Shown in pieces: positions 1 through 30,291 of a DNA stretch of 30,658 nt (positions are counted from its first letter, which is position 1; every line of letters starts with the position of its first letter). The DNA comes from a virus. Its lineage: Duplodnaviria > Caudoviricetes. Where the stretch lies: IMG/VR virus record IMGVR_UViG_3300009069_000041, positions 1 through 30,658 of that record. One strand, 5' to 3'. Both the position numbers and the translations under genes were made by a program. Under the pieces are notes generated by a model. That model was not told the origin of the DNA and ran no database searches. It worked only from the letters and a program-made list of their open reading frames with translations.

Positions 1-1050
1 TCAACGGACCTGACGAGGGTTCTTTGGTACGAGTGTACTGGATGCCGCGTCAGCGATGTCGTCATAATTGAGCGCTTCCGCCGCCCCGGCGAGGTATTCC
101 GGGGAGAAGCGCGCGTAGATCGAGCGCGTCACCTTGACGTCGCTGTGCCCGAGATACGACGCGATCTCTTCCATGGGGATACCCGCTTCGGCCATGTGCA
201 CCGCTGCGGAGTGGCGCAGCATGTGCGGCGTCGCTTTCGCCAGCCCGGCGCGCTTGCCAGCTGATGCGAGACCTTTCTTGACGCTGGCGACGCGCCTGCC
301 GGCATACTCGATGACGTAGCGGGTCAGCGCGCCCGCCTGCGCCTCGCGCAGGGCGGCGCGCGCCTGCCGCGTCATGGGAACGATCGCGCGGCCCTTGTGC
401 GGGGTTCTGATTTCCGGGTCTTCGAGCATGATGCGCCCCCGCTCGAAATCGACGCGATCCCATGTCAGCCCGAGAATGGCCTGTACGCGGCCAGCGGTGG
501 CGACGCCCAGGATCGTGAACAGGCGCAGGTGGGGCGCATCGCAGGCGTCGATCAGCTTGCGGACCTGCGCGCGCGTCAGATGGCGCTCACTCGGCTTGGG
601 CTTGCCGGGTCTCTCGATGTACGGCGCGCGCTCGATATGCCCGTTCTTCTCCGCCCATAGCAGAACCATGCGCAGGTGCCCCAGCTCTGTGTGAATGGTG
701 CCGTCCTTGATACCTGCGTCGCGGCGGCGCGCGGCGTGCTGCTTGCAGTGCTCAACGGTGATGGCATGCGCGGGCAGGGGGGCGAACAGGGGCGCGAGCG
801 CTTTCCATGTATGGGGGAGGGTGGCGCTGATGGCTCGGCCCGCCATGGCGCGCGCATAGGCGCGCCATAGCGCTTCGACCGTATCGGCCTCGGGGCGCGT
901 CAGCTCGGCGTAGAGTGCTGGCGCAATCTGTCGAGCCTTGCGCGGGTCGCTGGTTCCAAGCGAGCGACGTTTCCGCTGTCCATCGGCGGCGGTGTAGATG
1001 AGGACGAGCTTTCCTCGGTGGTGTCCGATCGACCATTCGGGCTCTTGCAT
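1..1050 (-). CDS. int: Tyrosine recombinase (phage integrase)
   Basis: Catalytic motifs TAGRVQAILGL (R), HMLRH (HxxR), LGHS and SIY (Y); 349 aa. Confidence 0.95.
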   Translation of the reverse strand: MQEPEWSIGHHRGKLVLIYTAADGQRKRRSLGTSDPRKARQIAPALYAELTRPEADTVEALWRAYARAMAGRAISATLPHTWKALAPLFAPLPAHAITVEHCKQHAARRRDAGIKDGTIHTELGHLRMVLLWAEKNGHIERAPYIERPGKPKPSERHLTRAQVRKLIDACDAPHLRLFTILGVATAGRVQAILGLTWDRVDFERGRIMLEDPEIRTPHKGRAIVPMTRQARAALREAQAGALTRYVIEYAGRRVASVKKGLASAGKRAGLAKATPHMLRHSAAVHMAEAGIPMEEIASYLGHSDVKVTRSIYARFSPEYLAGAAEALNYDDIADAASSTLVPKNPRQVR

Positions 1051-3838: not shown

Positions 3839-5620
3839 TTATCCTTCCTTTTCGGCTGATTGGCGGTACTGCGGCGGGAGCCAGCCCGTCGCTTCGACGA
3901 TGACGAAGACGACATTGACCAGCGCATCCTTCTTTGCGCTGGCGTAGCCGTTATTCTTGATCAGGGTTTCGATGTGCTCCGGCTCGCCGCGACCCGACCA
4001 GCCAATGCTCTCGATGCGAGTGCCGCTGCCCATGGCCAGCGCCTCGCGCATGACGGCCAGCAGGCGCGCCTTGGTGCAGCCTTGCAGGTACTCCTGCATC
4101 GGCATCAGCTCGCGCAGCTCGGCAACCAGCTCGTCATGAGGCAGAACGTCGATCAGGTGCTGAATGTACGAGCGGCGCACGTTCTCGCGATGCTGCGCGC
4201 CATCGGAGACGTCGATCGACGCGGCGGCGCAGATGGCCAGCTCCTTTGCGGTGTCCTGCGCGTCAAGGCCCGCGAACTGCGCATAGCTCTCGGTAAACAA
4301 TCCGCCCGGGATTTCAGGCTTGCCTTCAACGTCGATGGCCTGATGGCCATCAAGGCGGATGCGCAGCGGCGAGCCGTAGCGCGTGTGCAGCGCGGCCAGC
4401 ATCAGGTGCATCGCCAGGGTCGGATGGCGCGCGATGACGCGCGCCATCGCGACTGAGAGCGCGTCGTGCATCGTCGCGGAAAGCGCAGCGCTGATCGTCT
4501 CGCCGGGTTCAGGTTCGCTGGTCTCCGGCTCGGCCGGGCGTGCTGGCGGGTCGTTCAGCGCCGTATCGTCAGGATCCGGCGCGTCATCCGCTGCCGCATC
4601 AGGTGGCGTCACAAGACTGATCGAGAAGCCATATGTGCGCACGTCGACAAGGACGTGCAGGTGCGGGAGGTCCGCAATTCCGGCCAGCGCATCCCTGATG
4701 CCCTCTGCGATCCGCTCGAAATCGGCAAAGCCTGCTGGCGGCTCATGATCCGGCAGATCGGGCGCTGGCTGCTGGCGCAGATACCAGCCGTCATCGGCTT
4801 CAAAGCGGTCCATGGTTTTCGCTGCGCCGGCCTGCGCGATGATGGCGATCAGCTGCTGCTCCTTGGCGGTGCGCAGTCCGTGAAGGATCGAGCGATCAAG
4901 TATGATCGGATCGTCGCTGAACAGGTCTTCGTGTACGCGCCCGCCTGCCTCGATGTACTCGTCCAGGCTGACAAGCGCGAAGCTCGGATCGGTGGTCGTG
5001 GTTGTATCCTCCGCGACCAGCTTTCGGCGGATCGCGTAGCGGTGAAGCATGCCCGCTTTGCGCAGCGCCTTGAAGGCCTCGAGCTGCGCCTTCTGATCGC
5101 TGGTCAAGGTGAACTGACGCACGGCGTCGGCTTCGATGTTCCCTTCGCGGAAGGCGTCGAGAATGGTCGGGTGAATGCTGCCCAGCGCCATGACCTGACG
5201 CGCGGTGCGTACCGGCATGCCAAAGCGTTCAGCGACCTCGTTGGCCTCAAGCCCCAGCTCGGCAAAGGCGCGATACTGGTCGACGGGGTGAAGCTGCTGG
5301 CGATGGAAATTCTCGACCAGCGACAGCTTCTTGGCCTCGTCGTACTCAACGACGATGCAGCTGATCTCGTCGTCCTCGCTCATATGCCCGCGCTCGGCAA
5401 GCAGGCGCAGGGCCGCGAGGCGGCGGTTTCCCGCTGCGACCAGCTTCTTGCCGGCGCGCTTTGTGACGACAAGGGGGTATAGCAGCCCCTCGGCGGCGAT
5501 GTTGTCGGCAAGGGCTTCGACTTCGGCTTCACGATCGCTGCGACGGCTGTTGATGCTGTCTTTGCGCGCATGGCCGAATTCGAGGTCGCCAAGCCGGATG
5601 GTGGCGGTTTCTCTGTTCAT
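3839..5620 (-). CDS. ParB/RepB/Spo0J-family protein (593 aa, plasmid/ICE type)
   Basis: GLLYPLVV, AAGNRRLAAL (GxRR box), SLVENFHRQQLHPVDQYRAF, then an HTH; start MNRET with GGAG RBS and ATGA overlap. Confidence 0.88.
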   Translation of the reverse strand: MNRETATIRLGDLEFGHARKDSINSRRSDREAEVEALADNIAAEGLLYPLVVTKRAGKKLVAAGNRRLAALRLLAERGHMSEDDEISCIVVEYDEAKKLSLVENFHRQQLHPVDQYRAFAELGLEANEVAERFGMPVRTARQVMALGSIHPTILDAFREGNIEADAVRQFTLTSDQKAQLEAFKALRKAGMLHRYAIRRKLVAEDTTTTTDPSFALVSLDEYIEAGGRVHEDLFSDDPIILDRSILHGLRTAKEQQLIAIIAQAGAAKTMDRFEADDGWYLRQQPAPDLPDHEPPAGFADFERIAEGIRDALAGIADLPHLHVLVDVRTYGFSISLVTPPDAAADDAPDPDDTALNDPPARPAEPETSEPEPGETISAALSATMHDALSVAMARVIARHPTLAMHLMLAALHTRYGSPLRIRLDGHQAIDVEGKPEIPGGLFTESYAQFAGLDAQDTAKELAICAAASIDVSDGAQHRENVRRSYIQHLIDVLPHDELVAELRELMPMQEYLQGCTKARLLAVMREALAMGSGTRIESIGWSGRGEPEHIETLIKNNGYASAKKDALVNVVFVIVEATGWLPPQYRQSAEKEG

Positions 5621-6027
5621 GTCTGGTTCTCCGGTCCGTAGACTTTGTAGGCCTGGTTGATCAGGTCGCGGTCGGCGGGGGTGATCCCCCCGACGCCGAT
5701 GCGCTCGTAGCGTGCGAGCGCGGCGCGCAGGGTGCGCATGACGGTCGAGTGCAGTTTCCCGCTTACTGTGGGGCTTGTGCACAGCCAGATCAGCTTTGCG
5801 GGCACGCTCATGGGGCGCGGAGCGTAATCTGGCTGGTGCTGGCCCGCGCTGGGTGTTGGCGCGCATGTTTCCGCTGGGGCCAGCGCGCGCGCCAAGTCAT
5901 GCAGGTCGTAGCCCGATGATTGCAGCACCCTGCGCATGACCGTCACAGTGGCGACGATCTCCCCGTCATAGTCGCTCGCCAGCTTTGTGAGCAGGCGAGC
6001 TACGCGCTGGCGAGCGACGGTATCCAT
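5617..6027 (-). CDS. Hypothetical phage protein
   Basis: 136 aa, in operon, GGAG RBS, LASDYDGEIVA motif. Confidence 0.75.
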   Translation of the reverse strand: MDTVARQRVARLLTKLASDYDGEIVATVTVMRRVLQSSGYDLHDLARALAPAETCAPTPSAGQHQPDYAPRPMSVPAKLIWLCTSPTVSGKLHSTVMRTLRAALARYERIGVGGITPADRDLINQAYKVYGPENQT

Positions 6028-7340: not shown

Positions 7341-8306
7341 TCATCGGAACCACCATGCCGGCATGTCGTTCACGTCGAGCTCTGCCAGTGGCGCGGCGTT
7401 GACCCACGGCTCGCCCGGCGCAAAGCGCTCCGAGCAGGCGCGGAAGGCGTCTTCGGCCATGCGCAGCTCGCGCTTGGCCACGTCGAAGATCGGATTGTCG
7501 GGGTAGGTCAGGTACGTCCCCCATGTGACCGGGGCGCCGGAGGCCTGCCAGAACACGAAGGTGAACGCGAAAGGCTCGTTGTAGGCCACGCCGGCGAGCC
7601 AATCGTGATCGACTTGCGGGTGGTCATCAGCGACATGCACGCTCGACAGCAGGTGGCGCATCGAGGCGCGCCCCTCGCAATAGTGCGCCGCCTGCATCAG
7701 GTAGCCGCGGTTCCCGAGCGCGTTGATGCAGGTGCGCGCGAACTCGATGCCAAGCGTGTTCGTGATCGACTTGAGATCGACTGTCGAGCGCAGCTTCAAA
7801 TAGTCGAAGCGCGCCTTCTTGCGAATGCCGTCATCGGTCCAGAACACGCTGACCTCGGAGTAGCCGCCGCTGAAAGCGTTCGCCAGCTCGGGGTTGGCGC
7901 GGATCATGGTGCCGGCCTGCATGATGCGATCGTAATCCACGCGCATCAGCGGCGTCATGCCAGCCTCCGCGATGACGAGACGCTCTTCCTTGCCGGCTTT
8001 CAGGTTGGCCCCGTAATCGCAGGGCGCGTACTCGCTCTCGAATGCGGCGCGCCCTTCGAGCACGAACTTGTGGACCGCCTTGCCCTTGATCAGCGCCGGG
8101 CTCTTGGCGCTGTCATCGCCCGGATCGTGCATCGGGTTGTAGGCGCTCTCGAACCAGTAATCGGCCGGCTCGTAGCGCAGCTTTTTCATGTCGGTCGATC
8201 CGAGCGCGGGATCGGCGTGATACGCATCCTCGTTCAGTCCGAAGTAGATGCCATCCTTGTGCATCGGCACCTTTGGCTTTGTCTCGTCGGGCACTACAGC
8301 GTCCAT
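7341..8306 (-). CDS. PD-(D/E)XK exonuclease, RecE/ExoVIII-like (DUF3799 type)
   Basis: YHADPALGST, GKAVHKFVLE, KARFD...VDLKS, YLMQAAHY. Confidence 0.87.
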   Translation of the reverse strand: MDAVVPDETKPKVPMHKDGIYFGLNEDAYHADPALGSTDMKKLRYEPADYWFESAYNPMHDPGDDSAKSPALIKGKAVHKFVLEGRAAFESEYAPCDYGANLKAGKEERLVIAEAGMTPLMRVDYDRIMQAGTMIRANPELANAFSGGYSEVSVFWTDDGIRKKARFDYLKLRSTVDLKSITNTLGIEFARTCINALGNRGYLMQAAHYCEGRASMRHLLSSVHVADDHPQVDHDWLAGVAYNEPFAFTFVFWQASGAPVTWGTYLTYPDNPIFDVAKRELRMAEDAFRACSERFAPGEPWVNAAPLAELDVNDMPAWWFR

Positions 8307-8308
8307 AA

Positions 8309-8629
8309 TCAGACCCCTTTCGTTTCGATCAGTGCTGCGATGGCTTCCATTTGCACGGCCAGCTGCGGGCGCTCTTCCCCCAAGGCGCGCAGGCCAGCGA
8401 CAATGCGTGCTCGCTCGTCGTTGCGGACCCCGACCTCGAAGCTGCGGAGCAGCTGGTCGGCGGTATCGAGGCGGCGCTCTGCCTGGCGCTCGCCAGTGAT
8501 GTATTGATCCAGTCGAACGATGCTCATTTCCCCCCCTCGGTTGATCTCGCTGGTGAGCGCGAGCACAAGCACCACGCCGACGATGACGCCGACGAAAATG
8601 GCCACCAGTGCGAGTGCCGCGTATGTCAT
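8309..8629 (-). CDS. Hypothetical protein with N-terminal TM helix; possible internal start at 8527
   Basis: Hydrophobic residues 3-25; internal GAGGGGGGAA-ATG before MSIVRL. Confidence 0.65.
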   Translation of the reverse strand: MTYAALALVAIFVGVIVGVVLVLALTSEINRGGEMSIVRLDQYITGERQAERRLDTADQLLRSFEVGVRNDERARIVAGLRALGEERPQLAVQMEAIAALIETKGV

Positions 8630-8671
8630 GGGAAGATGGACGGGGCGGAGCGCGAGCCCCGCCCCTGCGCC

Positions 8672-9868
8672 TTACGCGACGCGATCAAGGAGCTTCTTGG
8701 CTTCCTTTTCGAAGGCGGTGCGCTCATCGGCAAACGGGATGTCGCGCGCCACGGCAGTGATGCCGTTCACCACGTCCCAGATGCTTTCGACGCGCCGGTC
8801 TTCTTCGCGCTCGACGGCCTCGATGATCATGTCGGTGCGCTTGCGGGTAAATCCGCGCGCCATGATGAAATCGACGGCCTCCTGCTGCTCGCTGGCGATC
8901 CTGGCCGACTTGGCCTTGTTGACCCCCTCGATCAGCTTCATGGACGAGCCGTCAGCGAAGGAGGACAGCGCCGGGCGCGCTTCTTCGAGAAAGCGCGCCG
9001 GGGCGTACTTTGTGTGCCGCATCGAGATTTCCTCGAAGTTCTCGACACCCCACATGAGGCGATTGCAGCAAATGGCCCGCAGGTAGAACGCTGCGATGAC
9101 CAGTGGCGCGGAACCGACCTCGGAGTTCTTGACGTAGAACCCCCGGAACATGAGATCCGGGTCGCCATTGGCCGTCTTGCCAACCTCGATGGGGTTGAGA
9201 TCGTCCACGAGGAACATGAACACGTCGCGGTCGCTGGCGTAGAGCGTCGTCGTGTCCTTCGTGACCGGCGCGTGCGGATCATAGACCATGGTGCGCCAGT
9301 CCATCGTGCCGGGGATTTTCCAGCGCGTGTCACCTGTGCCGTTGCCAGCGATCTGCTGCACTGCCTCGACCACCTCGTGATCGTAGATGCGGCCATATTC
9401 AGGCCCCGTTGCGGCGCGCATTTCGCCGCCCGGGACGCCGAACAGCTTGATGTCGTTCACCCCGCGATTGAAGCGCATGCCGTAGGACATCGCATCAGCG
9501 ACGATTTGGCTTGGCAGCGTACGCAGGTAGCCAGCCGGGGCCTTGGCGAGCTGCGCCAGCTGGCCAAACGACCAGTGCGTCGGCGTTGACACGCTGCCGT
9601 CAGGCATTCCCAGCATCAGAGGGTGCGTGTCCTCGACCGTGCGGATTTCCTCGGGGGCGAAGAACTCGACGCGCTTGGCTTCGATGCGTTCCTCGTTGCA
9701 GGCAGCGGCGCGGGTCAACACTGATTGGCGCAGCTCGTCCAGCGAGGTGAAGCGCTCATCGTGGGGGCGCGCCATCCACTGCTTCTGCAGGTCGTTGCGC
9801 ATGGTGCCGCCAGTGATGTTGGCGACTTTGAATTTTCCATCGGAAATGGCTGCTGACGTGTTCATCAT
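8672..9868 (-). CDS. DUF932-family protein (398 aa)
   Basis: WMARPHDERFTSL, PTHWSFGQLA, LYASDRDVFMFLVD, RGFYVKNSEVG, ICCNRLMWG; GGAGAG RBS. Confidence 0.82.
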   Translation of the reverse strand: MMNTSAAISDGKFKVANITGGTMRNDLQKQWMARPHDERFTSLDELRQSVLTRAAACNEERIEAKRVEFFAPEEIRTVEDTHPLMLGMPDGSVSTPTHWSFGQLAQLAKAPAGYLRTLPSQIVADAMSYGMRFNRGVNDIKLFGVPGGEMRAATGPEYGRIYDHEVVEAVQQIAGNGTGDTRWKIPGTMDWRTMVYDPHAPVTKDTTTLYASDRDVFMFLVDDLNPIEVGKTANGDPDLMFRGFYVKNSEVGSAPLVIAAFYLRAICCNRLMWGVENFEEISMRHTKYAPARFLEEARPALSSFADGSSMKLIEGVNKAKSARIASEQQEAVDFIMARGFTRKRTDMIIEAVEREEDRRVESIWDVVNGITAVARDIPFADERTAFEKEAKKLLDRVA

Positions 9869-19341: not shown

Positions 19342-19724
19342 AATGGCGTCTCCATACAGCGCACCAATTGCGCATTGATATGTTGGGGCAGCAGCTTCCA
19401 TCTTGAAAGCCTTTTTTCCAACAGACTGGTGTCTGATTTTTCGCAACAGAAAGCGGCATATCAAGCCGCCAAAGCCAAACTGTCTAAGCATTATGCCCGA
19501 TTATCGCTGGTGAAAAGCGCAACGCAGTCGTGTTGGATTGCGCGATTTCCACGCTGGAATTCGCTGGACGTTCTTTTCCGGGTTGACCAGTGAGACAAAA
19601 CCGGCCCAATCTCGCGCCCAAGGTATGGCGGTGGCGTTCGCCATGCCCCATGGTTCTCCAGACCAGTCCTCCGCCCCCGGCGCAGCGATGCACCGGGGGC
19701 GATCTCGTTTCAGGGAGCTGCCGC

Positions 19725-20270
19725 GTGCTGATCGAGGTCCGCATTTCTGATGGTCGGCTGGCGCGCTACGCGCGCGCCCTGGCCGAAGCGGGGCCGCGTG
19801 GCCGGCAGGAGATGGCGCGCGGGCTCAATGAGGGCGGCGACCGCGTTCGCACGCTTGTGCGCCGCGCGCTGCGCGATCAGACCGGCGTCATCAAGTATGG
19901 CACGGTCGTTGCGAATACGGTCAGCATCAGAGCTGCGCCCGGTCGGCTTGAATACAGGATCCGGGGCGAGGGGCCAGGGCTGCCGATCGAAGAGTTCAAG
20001 ACCAGTGTGCGCGACGGCAAGGGTGGCGGCGTCGTTGGCCAGCCGTGGCGGATCGCGCGCCAGTTCAAGCGATCATTCCGTCAGCAGTATCGAGGCGGTC
20101 TGATGGCGCGGCTCGGGCCTGATCGCTTCCCGATCAGGCGGCTGCGCGGGCCAAATCTGGCGCATGAAATCGTTGAAGGCGAGAGCTTGCAGACGTTCGA
20201 TCAGCAAGCGACTGCGCAGGTGATGCGCGCCATGACGAGACGTCTGGCGCGCATCTTTCCGAACCCGTAA
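19725..20270 (+). CDS. Phage tail-completion / minor tail protein, gpZ-like (181 aa, GTG start)
   Basis: Basic protein with ARGLNEGG..VRT...R.PIRRL.GP motifs; GGGAG RBS. Confidence 0.65.
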   Translation: MLIEVRISDGRLARYARALAEAGPRGRQEMARGLNEGGDRVRTLVRRALRDQTGVIKYGTVVANTVSIRAAPGRLEYRIRGEGPGLPIEEFKTSVRDGKGGGVVGQPWRIARQFKRSFRQQYRGGLMARLGPDRFPIRRLRGPNLAHEIVEGESLQTFDQQATAQVMRAMTRRLARIFPNP

Positions 20271-21003: not shown

Positions 21004-21096
21004 AGTAGGCTCCATTCATTCAGCGCCATGATTGACGCTAAAGTGACGCTAGGACACAACGGACAGGCCTACAAGTTCGAACTTGCAACCAAAGGG

Positions 21097-21256
21097 GTCG
21101 GTCCGGTTCGGGAGCGGTCCGGTTCGGGAGCGGTCCGGTTCGGGTCCGTCCGGCTGCATCGCGGTCGGGTTCGGGGCGAGGGACTTCGGGTCCGTCCGGT
21201 TCGGGTCCGTCCGGTTCGGGGCGGTCGAGTTCGGGAACGGTCGGGTTCGGGAACGC
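21097..21256. repeat. Degenerate tandem array of 15-16-bp units (core GTC[C/G]GGTTCGGG)
   Basis: GGTCCGGTTCGGGAGC x2, GTCCGGTTCGGGTCC units, GTTCGGGAACG x2; about 9 TTCGGG cores. Confidence 0.85.
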
Positions 21257-21779: not shown

Positions 21780-22310
21780 GACGACACGCATCGACCCCGG
21801 TTCGGTATCGTATCGAGCCGCATCGAGCCGCCCCGCGCCGAAACTGCCGCCAGCGCTGCGCACTGCCATAATTCGACAGCTGCCAGCGTGAAAAGGGATC
21901 GCCCCCGAACGGTTACAGGTCCAATAGCGGCCCGCCAAAGAACCGCGGCGCCTGCTCGATAGCGCAAAGAGCCGCCAGTGCTGCCCAATAGCCGCCATCG
22001 AACGAACCAGCGTGTCCAATCGCTGTCCCCCAGGCGCGACACATCGAGCCGCTGTCTCCCGGCAGCGACAGGCAGGCTCTGGTCGCGCAGGCACGACGCA
22101 GACAGCCCCCAGGCTGTCCAGCTCGTGCCGAAATGCGCAGACGACGAACCGATCAGCCGGGTCGCGCAGGCGAAAATGCGGGTGTCGTGCACCCGGCCAG
22201 AGGGACCGTAGATGGGCCGAGCCGTTGCGCGGCCGCCGCAGCGGGCTTTTTCCGCGTTTTATCGCTGAAATTTTTCCCGCTTTACTTTTCATTCGGAGCC
22301 AGATGAACGC

Positions 22311-22928
22311 ATGAGTAGCAAACGCTCAAAGAAGGTCGAAGAACCTGCCGAAAAACTGTGGTTCGCTGACAGAACCGAGCGCCGCTCGATCGATGATCTT
22401 GAGCCCTACGCTCGAAACGCGCGATTGCACAGCGATGAGCAGGTGGCCCAAATTGCCCGGTCTATAGAAACTTTCGGTTTCACCGTGCCTGTTCTGATCT
22501 CGTCGGACGGCGGCATCATTGCTGGCCATGGTCGCGTCCTTGCCGCGCGTCAGCTCGGGCTTGCGGAGGTGCCGTGCATCATCGCGCCGGACGACTGGGA
22601 CGAGGACAAGCGCCGCGCCTACGTGCTGGCGGATAACCGCATCGCGGAGAGCGGCGAGTGGGACGCAGAGCTGCTGAAAGTCGAGCTGGGCGCGCTGATC
22701 GAAGTCGGCATCAACGCCACCGATCTCGGCTTCTCCGATGAAGAGCTGAACACGATCATGAACGGCTGGGAGGCTGATCTGGACAAGACCAACAAGGTCG
22801 CTCCGGAGCTGTCAGACATGACGGCCACCATCAAGGTGAAGGTCAACCAGACACAGAAGGATGAAGTTGTCCAGGTGCTGAAAGACGCCCTCGACGTGGC
22901 GGGCTATGGCGATGCCGGCGTCGAGTAA
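22311..22928 (+). CDS. ParB/Srx N-terminal domain protein (terminase-associated type)
   Basis: LEPYARNARLHS, SIETFGFTVPVLI, IIAGHGRVLAA, AYVLADNRIAE..EWD; no methyltransferase domain follows. Confidence 0.92.
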   Translation: MSSKRSKKVEEPAEKLWFADRTERRSIDDLEPYARNARLHSDEQVAQIARSIETFGFTVPVLISSDGGIIAGHGRVLAARQLGLAEVPCIIAPDDWDEDKRRAYVLADNRIAESGEWDAELLKVELGALIEVGINATDLGFSDEELNTIMNGWEADLDKTNKVAPELSDMTATIKVKVNQTQKDEVVQVLKDALDVAGYGDAGVE

Positions 22929-23766
22929 GCTCTGCCTGCTCTCGGCGTATCCGTACCTGAACAAGTGCTCGGCCAAGGTGCTGAACGGTGTCGTTGCGCG
23001 CCGGGGCGAGATCGAATTCTTTCTCGACAGCGGAGCTTATACCGCATGGACCAAAGGCGAGGTCATCAGCATTCCGCAGTACCGGGCCTTCATCGAAAGC
23101 CTGCCATTCACGCCAGACCGCATGATGACGCTCGACGTCATCGGAGACGCCGAAGGGACGCGGCGCAACTTCGATCTGATGCTGGGGCTTGGCCTCGACA
23201 TCGTGCCCATCATCACGCGCGGCGAGGATCCGTCCGCGCTGGAATATTACTACCAGCACAGCGATCTCGTCGGCCTCGGCGGCGTGGCCCGCGTGGACAG
23301 CGCCTCCGCCGCATGGTGCCAAGCGATGATGTCGCATGTGGGCGACAGGAAGGCGCATATCCTCGGCATGACCCGGTTCGATTGGGTGAAGCTCCTGCGC
23401 CCATGGTCAGTCGATAGCTCGACATGGCTCTCCGGTGCCCGGTTTGGCGAGTGCCATGTCTATCTCGGCAACGGACACCTGACGAAATTTGAGCCCCGGC
23501 GCGGCAAGCCGCCGAAGCGCCTTGCAGAGCGCATTCGGCGGCTGGGCTTCGACCCCTACGAGCTGGGGCGGGCCTATGCCGGCGTCGGCAACAACTCGCT
23601 TTGGCAGCAGATCACGGCGTGCTCGTGGATTGAGTATTCCATCGAGCAGCAGCGCAACATCGGGACGCGCCTGTTTCTCGCCTTTTCGACCGAAGTGTTC
23701 TTCCACCAGCTCGTTGCTTGCTACGATCGCGTCATGGCGGTCAGGCAGGCGCGAGGTCTCAACTGA
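22906..23766 (+). CDS. TGT-fold (DpdA-like) guanine transglycosylase, putative 7-deazaguanine DNA insertase
   Basis: FFLDSGAYT, TLDVIG, GLGG, AHILG and SVDSSTW match TGT barrel catalytic positions; no CxCxxC Zn site; directly upstream of preQ0 genes. Confidence 0.75.
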   Translation: MAMPASSKLCLLSAYPYLNKCSAKVLNGVVARRGEIEFFLDSGAYTAWTKGEVISIPQYRAFIESLPFTPDRMMTLDVIGDAEGTRRNFDLMLGLGLDIVPIITRGEDPSALEYYYQHSDLVGLGGVARVDSASAAWCQAMMSHVGDRKAHILGMTRFDWVKLLRPWSVDSSTWLSGARFGECHVYLGNGHLTKFEPRRGKPPKRLAERIRRLGFDPYELGRAYAGVGNNSLWQQITACSWIEYSIEQQRNIGTRLFLAFSTEVFFHQLVACYDRVMAVRQARGLN

Positions 23767-23778
23767 AGAGCCTCTTGC

Positions 23779-25014
23779 ATGTGTTCGATATTCGGCGCCG
23801 TGGGGCGCTCTGACCTGAATGACCAGCTCCTGACCATCATCCGCGACCGTGCCCGCGACAGGGGGCGTGATGGCGGGCAGATGCAGCGCTTCGCCCTGTC
23901 AGGGGGCGGCATGGCCATCCTCGGGAACTGGCGCGCGACGCCAACCCCGGAGGTGGAGGTTGCGCCGCTCCAGCCCTACGATGGCGTCGTGCACAACGGC
24001 ACGATCGCCAACGACAAGGAGCTGGGCGCGCGCGAGGGCGAGATCGACAGCATGGTGCTGCCGCGCATCCTCGATCGGCGCAACATTCACGCCTTCCTGT
24101 CGTCGCTGCGCCGGATCAGGGGCAGCTACGCGCTCGCCGCCTATACCGGCAGCACGGTTCTCGCGGCCACGAACTACAAGCCGCTGTACTACGCCCGCCT
24201 GGGCGACACGACCTACTTCTCGTCCATGGAGCGCCATCTGGCCTCGCCAGTGACGCCGCCCGGCTTTCGGCCCGCGCGCATGGAGCCCTACAGCGTCATG
24301 GACCTGATGACGTTCGAGCGCCTGCCGCTGCCGCGCCGGGAGAAGAAGCGGGCGCTGGTGATCTGCTCCGCTGGCCTCGACAGCACGACAGCGGCCTACA
24401 AGCTGGCCAATGACGGCTACGAGGTCGCGCTTCTGCATTTCCGCTACGGCTGCAAGGCGCAGACCCGCGAGGTGGCGCTGGTCCACGAGATCGGGTCGCA
24501 CCTGAACGCGCATGTCTACCTGCTCGACATCGACTACTCGCCATTCCAAGGCGGATCGCCGCTGCTGACCGGCAAGGAGATCGCTGGCGCGGTCGAGGGA
24601 GCCGAGTACGCCCATGAGTGGGTGCCGGCACGAAACCTGCTGATGATCGCGCATGCCGTCGCTTTCGCGGAGGCCAACGGTTTCAGCTACGTCGCGCTGG
24701 GCAATAACCTTGAGGAAGCCGGGGCGTACCCGGATAACGAGGAAGAGTTCACGCACCTGCTCGACATGGCGCTGGACTATGCCGTCAGCGATGGCGCGAA
24801 GGTGCGCCTGATCGCGCCCCTGGGCGGTCTGATGAAGCACGAGATCGTCGCGCTCGGCGCGTCGCTTGGCGTGCCCTACGAGCTGACATGGAGCTGCTAT
24901 CGCGGCGGCAACGTGCATTGCGGGCGCTGCGGGCCGTGCATGATGCGCAAGACCGCGTTCGCGCGTCATGGCCTGACCGATCCCGCCTTCGCTCACGAGA
25001 GGGCGCCGGCATGA
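23779..25014 (+). CDS. queC: Gat-QueC fusion (Ntn glutamine amidotransferase plus 7-cyano-7-deazaguanine synthase)
   Basis: N-terminal MCSIFG (Cys1), RGRD, HNGTIAN, IDS; QueC motifs SAGLDS, VPARN, YPD, TWSCY, CGRCGPC. Confidence 0.93.
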   Translation: MCSIFGAVGRSDLNDQLLTIIRDRARDRGRDGGQMQRFALSGGGMAILGNWRATPTPEVEVAPLQPYDGVVHNGTIANDKELGAREGEIDSMVLPRILDRRNIHAFLSSLRRIRGSYALAAYTGSTVLAATNYKPLYYARLGDTTYFSSMERHLASPVTPPGFRPARMEPYSVMDLMTFERLPLPRREKKRALVICSAGLDSTTAAYKLANDGYEVALLHFRYGCKAQTREVALVHEIGSHLNAHVYLLDIDYSPFQGGSPLLTGKEIAGAVEGAEYAHEWVPARNLLMIAHAVAFAEANGFSYVALGNNLEEAGAYPDNEEEFTHLLDMALDYAVSDGAKVRLIAPLGGLMKHEIVALGASLGVPYELTWSCYRGGNVHCGRCGPCMMRKTAFARHGLTDPAFAHERAPA

Positions 25015-25685
25015 TCTCCGAGAAGCTGCGCGAGCGCCTCGAGGCCAAGGGCGTGCGCATGCACGCCAACGACCATATCGGGGACCACCTGACGAAATAC
25101 GAGCTGATCGCGCTTCAAGAGGAAGTCGAGCAGCGCGTCGCTGCGCTGCTCGACAGCCTCCTGATCGACCGCGCGTCAGATCATAACAGCAAGGACACGC
25201 ATCGCCGCGTCGCCAAGATGTTCATGCAGGAGGTCTTTGCCGGGCGCTACGCCGACAAGCCGGCAGTGACCGAGTTTCCGAACGTCAGCCAGCTCGACCA
25301 GCTCTACGTGGTTGGCCCGATCAGCGTTCGTTCGGCCTGCTCGCACCACCTTGTGCCGATCCTTGGCAGCGCATGGGTCGGCGTGATCCCCGGCGAGAAC
25401 GTCATCGGGCTCTCGAAATTCGGGCGGATCGCCGAATGGATCATGGCGCGGCCGCAAATTCAGGAAGAAGCGACGGTCATGCTCGCTGACGAGATCGAGG
25501 CCCTGTGCAAGCCGCTTGGCCTTGGCGTTGTCGTCAAGGCCGCGCATATGTGCTGCTCCTGGCGGGGGCTGAAAGACAATTCGGAGATGACGACGAGCGT
25601 GATGCGAGGCGTCCTTCGCGATGACCCGGCTGCCCGGAGCGAGTTTCTCACGTTCATCGGGGGGCATCGCTTCACATGCCGGTAA
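25011..25685 (+). CDS. folE: GTP cyclohydrolase I (224 aa)
   Basis: SACSHHLVP, GLSKFGRI, RPQIQE, HMCCSWRG; ATGA overlap. Confidence 0.95.
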   Translation: MISEKLRERLEAKGVRMHANDHIGDHLTKYELIALQEEVEQRVAALLDSLLIDRASDHNSKDTHRRVAKMFMQEVFAGRYADKPAVTEFPNVSQLDQLYVVGPISVRSACSHHLVPILGSAWVGVIPGENVIGLSKFGRIAEWIMARPQIQEEATVMLADEIEALCKPLGLGVVVKAAHMCCSWRGLKDNSEMTTSVMRGVLRDDPAARSEFLTFIGGHRFTCR

Positions 25686-26137
25686 AATATCGCTCAACCA
25701 AGACGTATGGCCACGAAGTCGGCCTGTCCTGCGCGTTTCGCCAGCACCGCGCCGACAGTCACTGCCGGTTTCTGCACGGCTACGCGCTCTCGATCCGCCT
25801 CGAGTTCGAGGCGCAGGCCCTCGACGCCCGCAATTGGGTTGTCGATTTCGGCTCATTGAAGTCGTTCAAGCAGGAGCTGGTCGACACGTTCGACCACAAG
25901 ACGCTGGTCGCCGCCGATGATCCGTCGCTGGCCGTGTTCAAGCAGATGGAGCGCGTCGGCATTTGCGAGCTGGTCGTCGTCGAAAAGACGGGCTGCGAGG
26001 CTTTTGCCGAGCTGATCTTCGAGTGCGCCGAGATCTGGCTGAAAGATGCCGGCTACGCGCCCCGCGTTCGCGTCAGAGAGGTCGAAGTGCGCGAGCATGG
26101 CGCAAATTCGGCCATTTTCTCGAAAGGGGCCGCGTGA
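25676..26137 (+). CDS. queD: 6-carboxy-5,6,7,8-tetrahydropterin synthase
   Basis: SHCRFLHGY, WVVDFG, FDHK, EVREH. Confidence 0.93.
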   Translation: MPVKYRSTKTYGHEVGLSCAFRQHRADSHCRFLHGYALSIRLEFEAQALDARNWVVDFGSLKSFKQELVDTFDHKTLVAADDPSLAVFKQMERVGICELVVVEKTGCEAFAELIFECAEIWLKDAGYAPRVRVREVEVREHGANSAIFSKGAA

Positions 26138-26802
26138 TGCTCGCTGTCAACGAGATTTTCCCGACAATTCAGGGCGAAGCCGTCTATACCGGCACGCCAT
26201 CGACCTTTGTGCGGCTGCAAGGCTGCGGCGTCGGCTGCCCGTGGTGCGATACCAAGTTCACCTGGGCGATTGACGCGGCGGATGAGGCTTCCGTCGAGCA
26301 CGTGCTCGCAAAGACCGAGAGCGCCACGCCCCAGCACGCCCGCATGACCGACGATCAGCTGCTCGCGATCGTCTCTGACATGCTCCCGCGCCATGTCGTC
26401 TTCACCGGTGGCGAGCCCGCGCTGTACGATCTGACGAAAGTGACGCGCCAGCTGGCCGAGTTCGGCTTCTCGACGCAGATCGAAACGAGCGGGACGCAGC
26501 TGATCAAGGTCGATCAGTCGACGCATGTGACCCTGTCTCCGAAGATCGGCATGCCCGGTGGCTTCAAGGTGCTCGACAGCGCGATCTTCCGCGCCGACGA
26601 GATCAAGATGCCGGTCGGCAAGCTGGATGACATTCACAAGCTCGACATCCTGCTGGCCAAGGCTGACGAGATCGATCACCCGACGATCTGGCTCCAGCCG
26701 CTTTCGCAGAGCGACAAGGCCACCAAGCTGTGCATCGACGTGGCAACGGAGCGCGGCTGGAAGGTGTCGCTGCAGACGCATAAATACGCCGGCGTGCGCT
26801 GA
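26137..26802 (+). CDS. queE: 7-carboxy-7-deazaguanine synthase (radical SAM, 221 aa)
   Basis: NEIFPTIQGE, CGVGCPWCDT (CxxxCxxC), FTGGEP, IETSG, SLQTHK. Confidence 0.95.
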   Translation: MLAVNEIFPTIQGEAVYTGTPSTFVRLQGCGVGCPWCDTKFTWAIDAADEASVEHVLAKTESATPQHARMTDDQLLAIVSDMLPRHVVFTGGEPALYDLTKVTRQLAEFGFSTQIETSGTQLIKVDQSTHVTLSPKIGMPGGFKVLDSAIFRADEIKMPVGKLDDIHKLDILLAKADEIDHPTIWLQPLSQSDKATKLCIDVATERGWKVSLQTHKYAGVR

Positions 26803-27329
26803 TGGCGAAGGAGCCGACCGCCACGCCGCAGCCGCGCGGCGACGGGATGGTTCCAACCACCCAGGTCGCCGCCGTGCTGATGATCACGAAGCAGCGGCTC
26901 GGGCAGCTGCAATCGATGGGGTATATCCCGCGCTCGCAGGTCAGGGGGCATGTCTCCCTCGTGGGCGCGGTTCAAGGCTACATCAAGTTCCTCAAGGACG
27001 AGGAGCGCAAGGCGTCGAAGGTCGCGTCGGAGAGCCGCGTGCGCGATGCGCGCGCACGCGAGCTCGAATTGCGCATCTCGGAGCGCGAGGGACGCCTGAT
27101 CGACATCAACGATGTCGTCGCATTCGAGACGGACGTGCTTGGTCAGCTGCGGGCAAACCTGTCCTCGCTGGCCGCGCGCGTCACGCGCGATCTCGACCTG
27201 CGCGAGAAAATCGACAGAGAGCTGAATGACATCCTTGCTACCTGCCAGCGTCGCTTCCAAGAGGCGGAGCGAACTGTATGGTCTGGCAGCGAAGCTGATA
27301 ACGCCGATCAAGGCGCAGACGCCGGATGA
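26802..27329 (+). CDS. terS: Terminase small subunit (Nu1-like)
   Basis: N-terminal HTH (TTQVAAVLMITKQRLGQL), coiled coil RARELELRISEREGRLI; overlaps terL. Confidence 0.85.
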   Translation: MAKEPTATPQPRGDGMVPTTQVAAVLMITKQRLGQLQSMGYIPRSQVRGHVSLVGAVQGYIKFLKDEERKASKVASESRVRDARARELELRISEREGRLIDINDVVAFETDVLGQLRANLSSLAARVTRDLDLREKIDRELNDILATCQRRFQEAERTVWSGSEADNADQGADAG

Positions 27330-30291
27330 ATGGGGCGCGCAGCACCGCATCTACCCGCCAAGCTCCGGTGTCCCGGGGCCGCGTGATCCGTACCTGACGC
27401 CATATGTCGTTGATGTCGAGCGCGCCGTTGTCAGCGGGCGCTTCCAGCGCGTCGTTTTCGTCTCTGCGGCACAGGGCGGCAAGACCGATCTGGTGCTCGA
27501 TGTCATAGGTCACAAGCTCGACACGCGGCCCGTGCCGATCCTGTATGTCGGCCCGTCGAAAGAGTTTCTGACCGACCAGTTCGAGCCCCGCCTGATGAGC
27601 CTGTTCGATGAGGCGGCGACGCTGTCTCACAAGGTCGTGCGTGGCCGCGCCATGAAGAAGACGCTCAAGCGCGTCTCGGGCGTCCCGGTGCGCCTTGCGC
27701 ATGCCGGGTCATCGACTGCGCTGAAATCCGACCCTGCCGCGTTCGCTGCGGTCGATGAGTACGACGAGATGATGGCCAACATCCGGGGCCAGGGCGATCC
27801 GCTCGGTCTGGTGGAGGCGCGCGGCGTCACCTACGCCGATTTCTGCGCCTTGATCACCTCGACGCCATCGCGGGGCGCAAAGGAGACCGAGGCGTGCGAC
27901 TTGACCGGGCTGGAGTTCTGGAAAGTGCTTGATCCAGACGAAATCGACAGCCCGATCTGGAAGCTGTGGCAGGAAGGCACGCGCTATCATTGGGCATGGC
28001 CGTGCAAACACTGCGATGAGTATTTCATCCCCCGGTTCTCGCTGCTGACGTGGCCAAAGGATGCGACGCCAAGTCAGGCGCGGCGCGAGACCAGCATGTG
28101 CTGCCCGCATTGTGGCGGCGTCCACGACGACGCCGACAAGGCGGACATGAACGCCAAGGGCGTCTATGTCGCGCCGGGCATGTCGATCGACAGCAATGGC
28201 GTCGTTAGCGGCGACCCGCCCGAGACATCGACGGCCTCGTTCTGGGCGTCAGGGCTGGCCTCGCCCTTCGTGTCATGGGGCGAGCGCGTCGAGCGCTACC
28301 TGAAGGCGCTGGCCAGCGGCGAGAGCGACAAGGTTCAGACCGCCGTCAATGCTGGCTTCGGAGAGACATTCATCCCGGCTGGCGGCGACGTGCCGAGCTG
28401 GGAGCAGGTGTTGCAGCTGCGCACGCCGCTGCCGCGCAGGACTGTGCCGCTCGAGGCCGTGTTCCTGACCGCTGGCGTCGACGTGCAGGGCAACGGGCTC
28501 TACTACACCGTCCGGGGCTGGGGCTCACGCGCGCAGTCCTGGCTGATCGATCACGGCATCATGTGGGGCGACACCAGCATGCCGGAGGTGTGGGCCGATC
28601 TCGGGGAATACCTGACGCAGCCCATCGACGGGATGTATGTCAAGGTCGCCTACATCGACAGTGGCTTCCGCCCGGGCAAGAAGTTCATCGTGCCCGAGAA
28701 CCGCGTCTATGAGTTCTGCCGGCAGTACCGCCGTTTCGTCTTCCCGGCCAAGGGCCGCGCGACGATTTCGAACGACCTGTGGATCCGGGTTTCGCGCATC
28801 GAGGTCAACACGCAGGGCAAGGCCGCGAGCTACGGGCTCGATCTGGTGCTGATCAACACCGACAAGGCCAAGAGCTTCGTGCACGAGCGGCTGCGCTACC
28901 CGATCGACGCGAAGGGCGCTTTCCTGCTCCACGAGGAAGCTGACGAGGACTACTGCAAGCAGATCGTCGCGGAGGCGCGCGTCAAGAAGCCGAATGGCGG
29001 TTTCGATTGGGTGCCCGTCAGCCGCGAGAACCACTTCCTCGATTGCTTCGACCCGCAAACCGAACTGCTGACCGATCAGGGCTGGATGGCAGTCGAGGAT
29101 GCGGTGTCCTATGGCGGCGCTTTTGCGACCGTGAACCTCAACACTGACGAGATCGAGTACCAAAAAGCGACAAGCAGCGTCAGGCGCAGACACGTTGGCG
29201 CGATGGTGCGCCTCAAGGGGCGCGCCATCGACGCGCTCGTGACACCAAATCATCGTATGGTCACGGTGCGCAGCAACCCCGTTGACGAGACGGCCAGGAT
29301 CACACTCGCCAAAGACCTGACAATCTGGCACCGGATCAAGATGACCGCGACGTGGCGCGGAAGCGATCCGGCGTGGGTTCACCTGCCTGCCGTGGACATC
29401 GAAATCCCACGGCGCGGGGGCATTCACGAGCCGGCACGCAAGCTGGCAACGAGCGACGTCTGCGAGCTTCTCGGCTGGTATGTCTCCGAGGGTCACAAGC
29501 GCGCCATTGGCCGCTCCCGCGCAGTCGTCATCAGCCAGAACCCAGGTTCAAAACAGGAGCGCATTTGCGCCTTGATCGATCGCTGCGGGTTTCGATGGCG
29601 TATCACAAACGGTCGGCAAATCGTCGTCACCTCGCGCCAGCTCTACGATCTCGTCAGCGAGTGCGAAATGCCTGGCGACGGTCGCGGCTGCTATCGCAAG
29701 CGCGTTCCAGATTGGGTGAAGGGCTTGGCGGCACCGTTGATCGAGCGCTTCATTGAGGCGGCCATCCTTGGCGATGGGTGGGTGCAGAACCGGTTCCGCA
29801 CGTTTGCGACCACCAGCCGGGTGCTTGCCAACGATATGCAAGAGCTGATGCTGAAAATTGGGAAAACAGCGAGCCTGCGCACCAGAACTGTGCCCGCATG
29901 CCGTATTCGCGGCAGCGAGCATCAGACAGCGGTGCAGTATCATGTCTCCGAGCGCCTGACGCGCGCCGCGCTCCTGCGCCGGGCGGATAACGCGCCCATT
30001 TTCGAGACCGTCGACTACAATGGCATGGTTTATTGCGTGACCGTTCCGAACGGCACGCTCATCGCGCGTCGAAACGGCCTGCCAATGATCGTCGGGAACT
30101 GCGAGGCGCAGGCCGCAGCCGCCGCCTATCATGCAGGCGTCTTTCGCCTGCCTGATGGCGCGCGGCGTGATCCGCCAGCCCCGGAGCCGGATTTGCCGTC
30201 GCCCGCGCCCGAGCCGAACAAGCCGCCGCCGCGGCGTGACAACCCGCGCAAGAGCCGGTTTGCCGACATCGCCGCCCGTCTGAACGAGTGA
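27226..30291 (+). CDS. terL: Terminase large subunit, lambda GpA family, intein-containing (1021 aa precursor, about 669 aa spliced)
   Basis: AAQGGKT Walker A, AVDEYD Walker B, STPS, CKHC/CPHC, LTAGVDVQ, IDSG, ENHFLD/C. Confidence 0.95.
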   Translation: MTSLLPASVASKRRSELYGLAAKLITPIKAQTPDEWGAQHRIYPPSSGVPGPRDPYLTPYVVDVERAVVSGRFQRVVFVSAAQGGKTDLVLDVIGHKLDTRPVPILYVGPSKEFLTDQFEPRLMSLFDEAATLSHKVVRGRAMKKTLKRVSGVPVRLAHAGSSTALKSDPAAFAAVDEYDEMMANIRGQGDPLGLVEARGVTYADFCALITSTPSRGAKETEACDLTGLEFWKVLDPDEIDSPIWKLWQEGTRYHWAWPCKHCDEYFIPRFSLLTWPKDATPSQARRETSMCCPHCGGVHDDADKADMNAKGVYVAPGMSIDSNGVVSGDPPETSTASFWASGLASPFVSWGERVERYLKALASGESDKVQTAVNAGFGETFIPAGGDVPSWEQVLQLRTPLPRRTVPLEAVFLTAGVDVQGNGLYYTVRGWGSRAQSWLIDHGIMWGDTSMPEVWADLGEYLTQPIDGMYVKVAYIDSGFRPGKKFIVPENRVYEFCRQYRRFVFPAKGRATISNDLWIRVSRIEVNTQGKAASYGLDLVLINTDKAKSFVHERLRYPIDAKGAFLLHEEADEDYCKQIVAEARVKKPNGGFDWVPVSRENHFLDCFDPQTELLTDQGWMAVEDAVSYGGAFATVNLNTDEIEYQKATSSVRRRHVGAMVRLKGRAIDALVTPNHRMVTVRSNPVDETARITLAKDLTIWHRIKMTATWRGSDPAWVHLPAVDIEIPRRGGIHEPARKLATSDVCELLGWYVSEGHKRAIGRSRAVVISQNPGSKQERICALIDRCGFRWRITNGRQIVVTSRQLYDLVSECEMPGDGRGCYRKRVPDWVKGLAAPLIERFIEAAILGDGWVQNRFRTFATTSRVLANDMQELMLKIGKTASLRTRTVPACRIRGSEHQTAVQYHVSERLTRAALLRRADNAPIFETVDYNGMVYCVTVPNGTLIARRNGLPMIVGNCEAQAAAAAYHAGVFRLPDGARRDPPAPEPDLPSPAPEPNKPPPRRDNPRKSRFADIAARLNE
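29044..30099 (+). mobile_element. Intein (352 aa) with LAGLIDADG homing endonuclease
   Basis: Block A CFDPQTELLT, block B VTPNHR, LLGWYVSEG and FIEAAILGDG, block F VYCVTVPNG, terminal GN followed by +1 Cys; removal restores NHFLD-CEA. Confidence 0.95.

Follow-up and report, generated by a model that had tools for sequence, protein, structure and literature searches.

The window, by which we mean the whole 30,658-nucleotide stretch of IMG/VR record IMGVR_UViG_3300009069_000041 that was analysed, belongs to a provirus that is 60% complete. A tyrosine integrase gene (1..1050, minus strand; phrog_1, E 3e-54) provides a temperate-phage context; the window also encodes a repressor-like gene and GcrA, which suggests an alphaproteobacterial host. 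On the plus strand lies a run of abutting genes that begins with a ParB-like gene (22311..22928, 205 aa; phrog_620, E 1e-48), the end of which overlaps the start of dpdA (22906..23766), predicted to encode a DpdA1-type DNA guanine transglycosylase of 286 aa. The run continues with gat-queC (23779..25014; PF06508 and PF13537), which encodes a class II glutamine amidotransferase–QueC fusion, folE for GTP cyclohydrolase I (25011..25685; PF01227, E 3e-42), queD (25676..26137; phrog_2389, E 2e-40), queE for the radical SAM CDG synthase (26137..26802; TIGR04322, 268.7 bits against a cut-off of 200), a terminase small subunit gene (26802..27329; phrog_57, E 4e-15) and a gpA-type terminase large subunit gene (27226..30291; PF05876, PF20454 and PF14528), and it closes with an open reading frame cut by the end of the window. 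The large subunit is interrupted after about residue 608 by an intein-like LAGLIDADG insert. In Gat-QueC the two domains are truly fused, and its N-terminus, MCSIFG, is as in the Gat-QueC of phage 9g; the 25 phage matches listed for it have 42-48% identity. Elsewhere, a second ParB-domain protein of 675 aa is encoded in the early region (3839-5866, minus strand), and a tail-completion/neck gene (19590-20270, plus strand; phrog_27) lies upstream of the packaging module, apart from the other structural genes. No tRNA gene, Rfam family or sigma-70 promoter was found in the window.

There are two candidate start codons for dpdA, ATG 22906 and ATG 22912, both inside the end of parB and neither preceded by a clear ribosome-binding site. 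A sequence-only reading of this DNA had singled out the 286-aa frame as the base-exchange enzyme of the module, pointing to four motifs and to a missing CxCxxC zinc site. All of these features are there: DSGAYT, LDVIG, HILG and SVDSSTW supply D41, D77, H151 and D170, respectively, and CxCxxC is absent from the protein, which has 6 cysteines. A match to phrog_887 (E 2e-29; phrog_7068 is also matched) and 129 relatives among 1813 candidates mark this as a real gene, and the four residues are invariant across 42 aligned relatives. The product has no model match in Pfam, NCBIfam (TGT models included) or PADLOC, and searches of PDB sequences with the protein and with its profile returned nothing meaningful.

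The AlphaFold2 model, built with 42 relatives in the alignment, has a pLDDT of 93.5 and is a TGT-type (beta/alpha)8 barrel rather than the non-TIM-barrel fold that would have spoken against the assignment. In a VIA search of 48,161 chains the top five matches all belong to the TGT family (Z 12.6-14.9), namely arcTGT (Z 14.9, rmsd 3.5, 233 aligned), bacterial DpdA 7UI4 (Z 14.8, rmsd 3.4, 241 aligned), bTGT, QTRT2 and Cap10 (Z 12.6), and the next, unrelated barrel scores 11.4. Among viral models, the closest structural matches are a protein of an uncultured phage (TM 0.90) and TGT-like proteins from the phages Sonali and Megan. These structural matches and phrog_887 back the assignment as the base-exchange enzyme of the module. 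In a joint alignment with five bacterial TGTs, D41, D77 and D170 fall on the aspartates of the DSGG, FD and FDC motifs, and D41, D77, H151 and D170 are invariant with respect to the characterised DpdA1. The conserved His196 of phage DpdA1 (PMC6884629), which by our reading of the 9g numbering lies in KVHGFG, aligns with H151, although this column is a poor discriminator, given that nt-1, phiST and HVTV-1 also have His there.

The same reading had called the protein compact and divergent, and neither term sets it apart. The known phage DpdA span 240–385 aa (9g 317, CAjan 306, iggy 312, Rosebush 385, phiSM 240 and Dp-1 311), with the same motif series and likewise no CxCxxC, so that compactness and zinc loss, being common to all known phage DpdA checked, have to be rejected as marks of novelty. 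Indeed, the CxCxxC...H zinc site of tRNA TGTs and bacterial DpdA is absent from all 132 clade rows and 114 other phage-type rows of our alignments, and the 9g enzyme had already been stated to be without two of the four zinc ligands (PMC5699537).

By eye, the protein had also been left unplaced among the DpdA groups; comparison with DpdA1-4 by HMM and phylogeny puts it with DpdA1. Its BLAST scores against Rosebush, 9g and phiSM (67, 61 and 56 bits) resemble those of known members with one another (9g-Rosebush 66, 9g-phiSM 51, Rosebush-phiSM 39), with a weaker 27 against Dp-1; tblastn against 9g gives E 2e-8, and a clade profile scores 126-128 bits on 9g, CAjan and iggy, 104 on Rosebush and 95 on phiSM. 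Similarity to DpdA2, DpdA3 or DpdA4 is lacking both by BLAST (20 bits, 19 bits and no match) and by the clade HMM (1.5, 0.3 and -0.4 bits) for nt-1 YP_008125322, phiST gp042, taken as DpdA3 from its position and size, and HVTV1_69, respectively.

Within DpdA1, FastTree (132 rows) places the window protein inside a 50-row clade (SH 97) that holds no characterised enzyme, and IQ-TREE (56 selected rows) gives support of 94 for 17 clade rows. The nearest characterised enzyme is that of Rosebush, at a tree path of 2.79 that is shorter than the one from Rosebush to 9g (3.04), and the patristic distance to phiSM (4.37) exceeds the maximum among the six characterised DpdA1 (3.74). As to clear nesting within a characterised clade, which would have removed the claim to novelty, midpoint-rooted trees set the lineage beside the Rosebush group; when DpdA2, DpdA3, DpdA4 and Orion are added the root falls on the window lineage via long branches, and a sister position outside the other DpdA1 is not rejected (p-AU 0.283), in trees that leave out the Salmonella 7-11 DpdA. 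Judged by its sequences, the window lineage is distinct, supported and DpdA1-like. The suggestion of an uncharacterised subfamily therefore holds in so far as the lineage is without a characterised member, and draws nothing from size, motifs or zinc loss, none of which is unusual.

Thirty-six of the 129 relatives score at least 155 bits, with 34-81% identity, the closest being P0002 at 81%. A relative is encoded by 360 IMG/VR stretches, the best 80 of which were analysed as viral loci, and 11 of 30 GTDB loci are clade members; the clade size given here is a lower bound. Prophages in assemblies of Paraburkholderia strains (L093, L094) also carry members of the lineage, and L093, from Paraburkholderia adhaesiva, shares the gat-queC module. 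Among 50,697 records of cultured phages, tblastn matched 227, including 9g, Rosebush and phiSM; none is a close relative, the best matches having 26-40% identity. Some modules carry two dpdA-like genes, as in L094 (5747-6544 and about 7824-8741), where phrog_887 matches one gene at 220 bits and the other belongs to the window lineage, and as in phage Megan (gp2 and gp3; L139); such pairs could give two motifs. Six distant DpdA1 relatives (P0121-P0126) are 616-789 aa long, with a match that ends at the nucleophile Asp motif, and three of them have intein/LAGLIDADG Pfam matches. In P0128 an N6-methyltransferase-like domain is followed by a fused DpdA1-like domain.

The genomic surroundings were surveyed in 72 non-redundant loci of 91, the denominators being loci with enough flank. 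A parB gene lies directly upstream of dpdA in 58/68, QueC is found in 59/69 and FolE, QueD and QueE occur together in 53/57. Gat-QueC is rare (2/69), and most relatives would accordingly make dPreQ0 or something else. A terminase was found with only two query types in 15/42 loci, an undercount, since L018 and L093 carry other terminases. A tyrosine integrase is present in 7 of the 28 records tested (4 of the 11 near-complete ones) and a serine recombinase in none of those tested, which indicates that the lineage spans temperate and apparently lytic phages.

Just upstream of parB, a suggestive sequence (22227..22294, plus strand) may be a cos-like packaging end. No other tile of the window matches the lambda left end as well (score 49, against 39.5 for the next), although 2 of 30 shuffled queries also reach 49. 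Of the best 80 of the 360 viral loci, 24 have their ends just ahead of parB, 560-835 nt upstream of dpdA; downstream, 1/80 ends in the 500-1000 nt bin. This clustering of locus ends, together with the lambda match, makes it likely that the module stands first in the packaged genome, as in Rosebush, Bipper and StAugustine. Farther upstream (21095-21255), a 15-16 bp unit with the core GGTCCGGTTCGG is repeated in tandem about ten times, imperfectly. The substrate had been called open between DNA and RNA; homology, the module and its location at the packaging end all favour DNA.

In a temperate prophage, a parB–dpdA–gat-queC–folE–queD–queE–terminase module makes archaeosine in progeny DNA likely, and with good confidence we favour the following mechanism, the chemical steps of which are all drawn from 9g and bacterial DpdA. 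From its position before the terminase genes, the operon would be expressed late in lytic growth, when its products would supply preQ0. DpdA would then exchange guanine for the 7-deazaguanine in newly replicated phage DNA by a double-displacement reaction in which, on the model of bacterial DpdA (PMC10164549), D41 would be the general acid/base and D170 the nucleophile. Gat-QueC would yield archaeosine (dG+) as the predicted final base, and the modified progeny DNA would be shielded from host restriction enzymes. We propose that late expression would at the same time leave the integrated prophage and the host chromosome unmodified.

One part of the active site differs from that of the characterised enzymes. 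A beta-5 histidine of the guanine pocket, present in all six characterised DpdA1, is Thr104 in the window protein; the use of this residue as a criterion is an observation of the present analysis and is not published. Among the 125 clade rows with a residue at position 104, 121 have Thr, 4 have Gln and none has His, while 7 further rows have a gap; the same column is His in 106 of 114 other phage-type rows, and Arg105 is present in 112 of 132 clade rows, all counted on rows that were not deduplicated and with clade membership taken from the FastTree tree. The joint MAFFT alignment pairs this column with the Gln in the IVQG motif of bTGT and with the His of other DpdA1, and T104 may correspond to His181 of 7UI4; the mapping of T104 rests on this alignment and on a local hhalign to the five bacterial TGTs, the support from which is low (probability 7%, E 0.005). 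Because the pocket histidine is replaced, base recognition may differ from that of other DpdA1. Thr104 does not predict the final base, since it accompanies plain QueC, Gat-QueC, QueF and no QueC alike. At beta-6 the protein reads GGVA, which is similar to GGLV/GGMV in preQ0/G+ phages and not to the SPAN of the preQ1 phages Dp-1 and phiSM. Three clade members with Gln104 (L037, L039 and L089), for which queC was not found in the DNA examined, are candidates for a different base, for example dCDG or dDG.

It is conceivable, if improbable, that the change from His to Thr/Arg goes further and alters the chemistry or the substrate, with another purine being inserted or a protein being modified as by the TGT-family enzyme Cap10. 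The alignment of T104 with the bTGT Gln and the DpdA1 His, the near-uniform Thr of the clade and the place of Cap10 among the top structural matches would accord with this, but the preQ0 pathway is kept in the loci surveyed, Thr104 does not track the final base and the pocket position is already Gln or His among working enzymes. It is similarly improbable that the prophage is decaying and the module in it a silent relic: the window is a provirus fragment in which no tail genes were seen, yet all six genes of the module are intact open frames with catalytic motifs, as are those for the terminase and the integrase, and a relative with 81% identity exists (P0002). That dpdA encodes a tRNA-guanine transglycosylase altering host tRNA is very improbable, for although the fold is the same, structure searches score arcTGT and bTGT as high as bacterial DpdA and PHROG and GenBank names say 'queuine tRNA-ribosyltransferase', the protein has no Pfam/NCBIfam TGT match and no zinc motif, no tRNA gene accompanies it in the window, 9g dpdA modified DNA and did not complement E. 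coli tgt (PMC6884629), and the genomes with related loci have their own bTGT (5/5).

The ParB-like protein upstream, which consists of a ParB N-terminal domain and a small conserved C-terminal domain, is a candidate helper, with the chances about evenly balanced. Bacterial DpdA acts together with the ParB-like DpdB (PMC10164549), phage thymine dioxygenases have a short ParB as their activator (PMC13229309, where the idea that ParB directs DNA-modifying enzymes is credited to Iyer 2013), and a ParB gene has been suggested before, untested, as a dpdB homolog in phage CRB2 (PMC6392294). The best cultured matches of the ParB-like protein lie mostly within phage DNA-methyltransferase genes. Its profile matches 4 of 10 phages searched (Rosebush, Bipper, Sonali and phiSM), with no match in 9g, CAjan, iggy, Dp-1, Erebus or HD01. 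The 9g DpdA is active alone in E. coli (PMC6884629); phiSM DpdA1, with a parB next to its gene, showed no activity in that host (PMC10516641). Neither paper uses the term 'ParB' in its main text, nor do the supplements of PMC6884629. In a mirror-tree test of 45 loci, rho was 0.15 for DpdA-ParB, 0.29 for DpdA-QueC and 0.59 for ParB-QueE, and the interval for the rho difference spans zero, so that no special ParB-DpdA co-inheritance is seen. A weak search for ParB-DpdA fusions (7999 candidates scored) found none among 8 longer relatives and 120 others listed, about one locus in seven has no adjacent parB by the test used here, and the predicted DpdA-ParB complex, with a score of 0.06 against a mark of 0.32, counts neither for nor against the pairing.

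More tentatively, and with rather more doubt than conviction, phage DpdA1 might fall into two classes, one stand-alone and linked to replication (9g, CAjan, iggy, Dp-1), the other activated by ParB and linked to packaging. The widespread window lineage with its Thr-Arg pocket would be the largest part of the second class seen here, would mark a new sequence motif, one other than GA or GGC, and would bring deazaguanine hypermodification into temperate phages. Such a division would explain the inactivity of phiSM DpdA1 in E. coli. In the papers covered here, a target motif is reported for only two phage DpdA, those of CAjan and iggy, and several DpdA failed in E. coli (PMC10516641); were ParB the missing activator, co-expression would make the failed enzymes accessible and provide further tools for labelling DNA at specific sites. 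The Paraburkholderia prophages would make temperate phages that hypermodify only their progeny DNA approachable by induction. Should neither ParB dependence nor a new motif hold, the window lineage would be simply one more DpdA1 branch. Neither the lineage nor its Thr pocket was found described in literature searches. Uncultured Caudovirales are mentioned 22 times in the supplement of PMC10516641, at least two of these mentions being in rows filed under DpdA3, and the DpdA1 entries there may include a clade member. What is new here, a lineage of uncultured phages and prophages with a Thr pocket and a ParB-like neighbour, is of modest novelty.

Among the closest known systems is that of Rosebush, which shares the motif set, the lack of a zinc site and a ParB-first order before the terminase, with Que genes downstream and the terminase downstream where seen, and whose DNA carries about 28% dPreQ0 at G (PMC6884629). 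The window protein differs in having about 40% identity to that of Rosebush over 132 residues, in forming a separate supported clade and in its Thr for the pocket His, and the module has Gat-QueC in place of QueC. ParB-first modules occur also in Bipper, Sonali, Finch, Funsized, Megan and StAugustine, the last with a 471-aa QueC-like gene that matches the window's Gat-QueC. The dG+ system of 9g has the same enzyme set (DpdA1, Gat-QueC and FolE/QueD/QueE; PMC6884629), but identity is 29% over residues 11-181, the 9g genes adjoin DNA polymerase and no ParB of the window type was found in 9g. DpdA-DpdB of Salmonella Montevideo (7UI4; PMC10164549) shares the fold, the catalytic aspartates and a ParB-superfamily partner gene, whereas bacterial DpdA is 413 aa long, keeps the zinc site and is part of a restriction-modification island; PADLOC found no Dpd match in the window. 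The ParB-dependent phage thymine dioxygenases (PMC13229309) differ in catalytic fold and base, but are likewise phage DNA-modifying enzymes beside a short ParB, which is a required activator on dsDNA there and is proposed as such for the window lineage.
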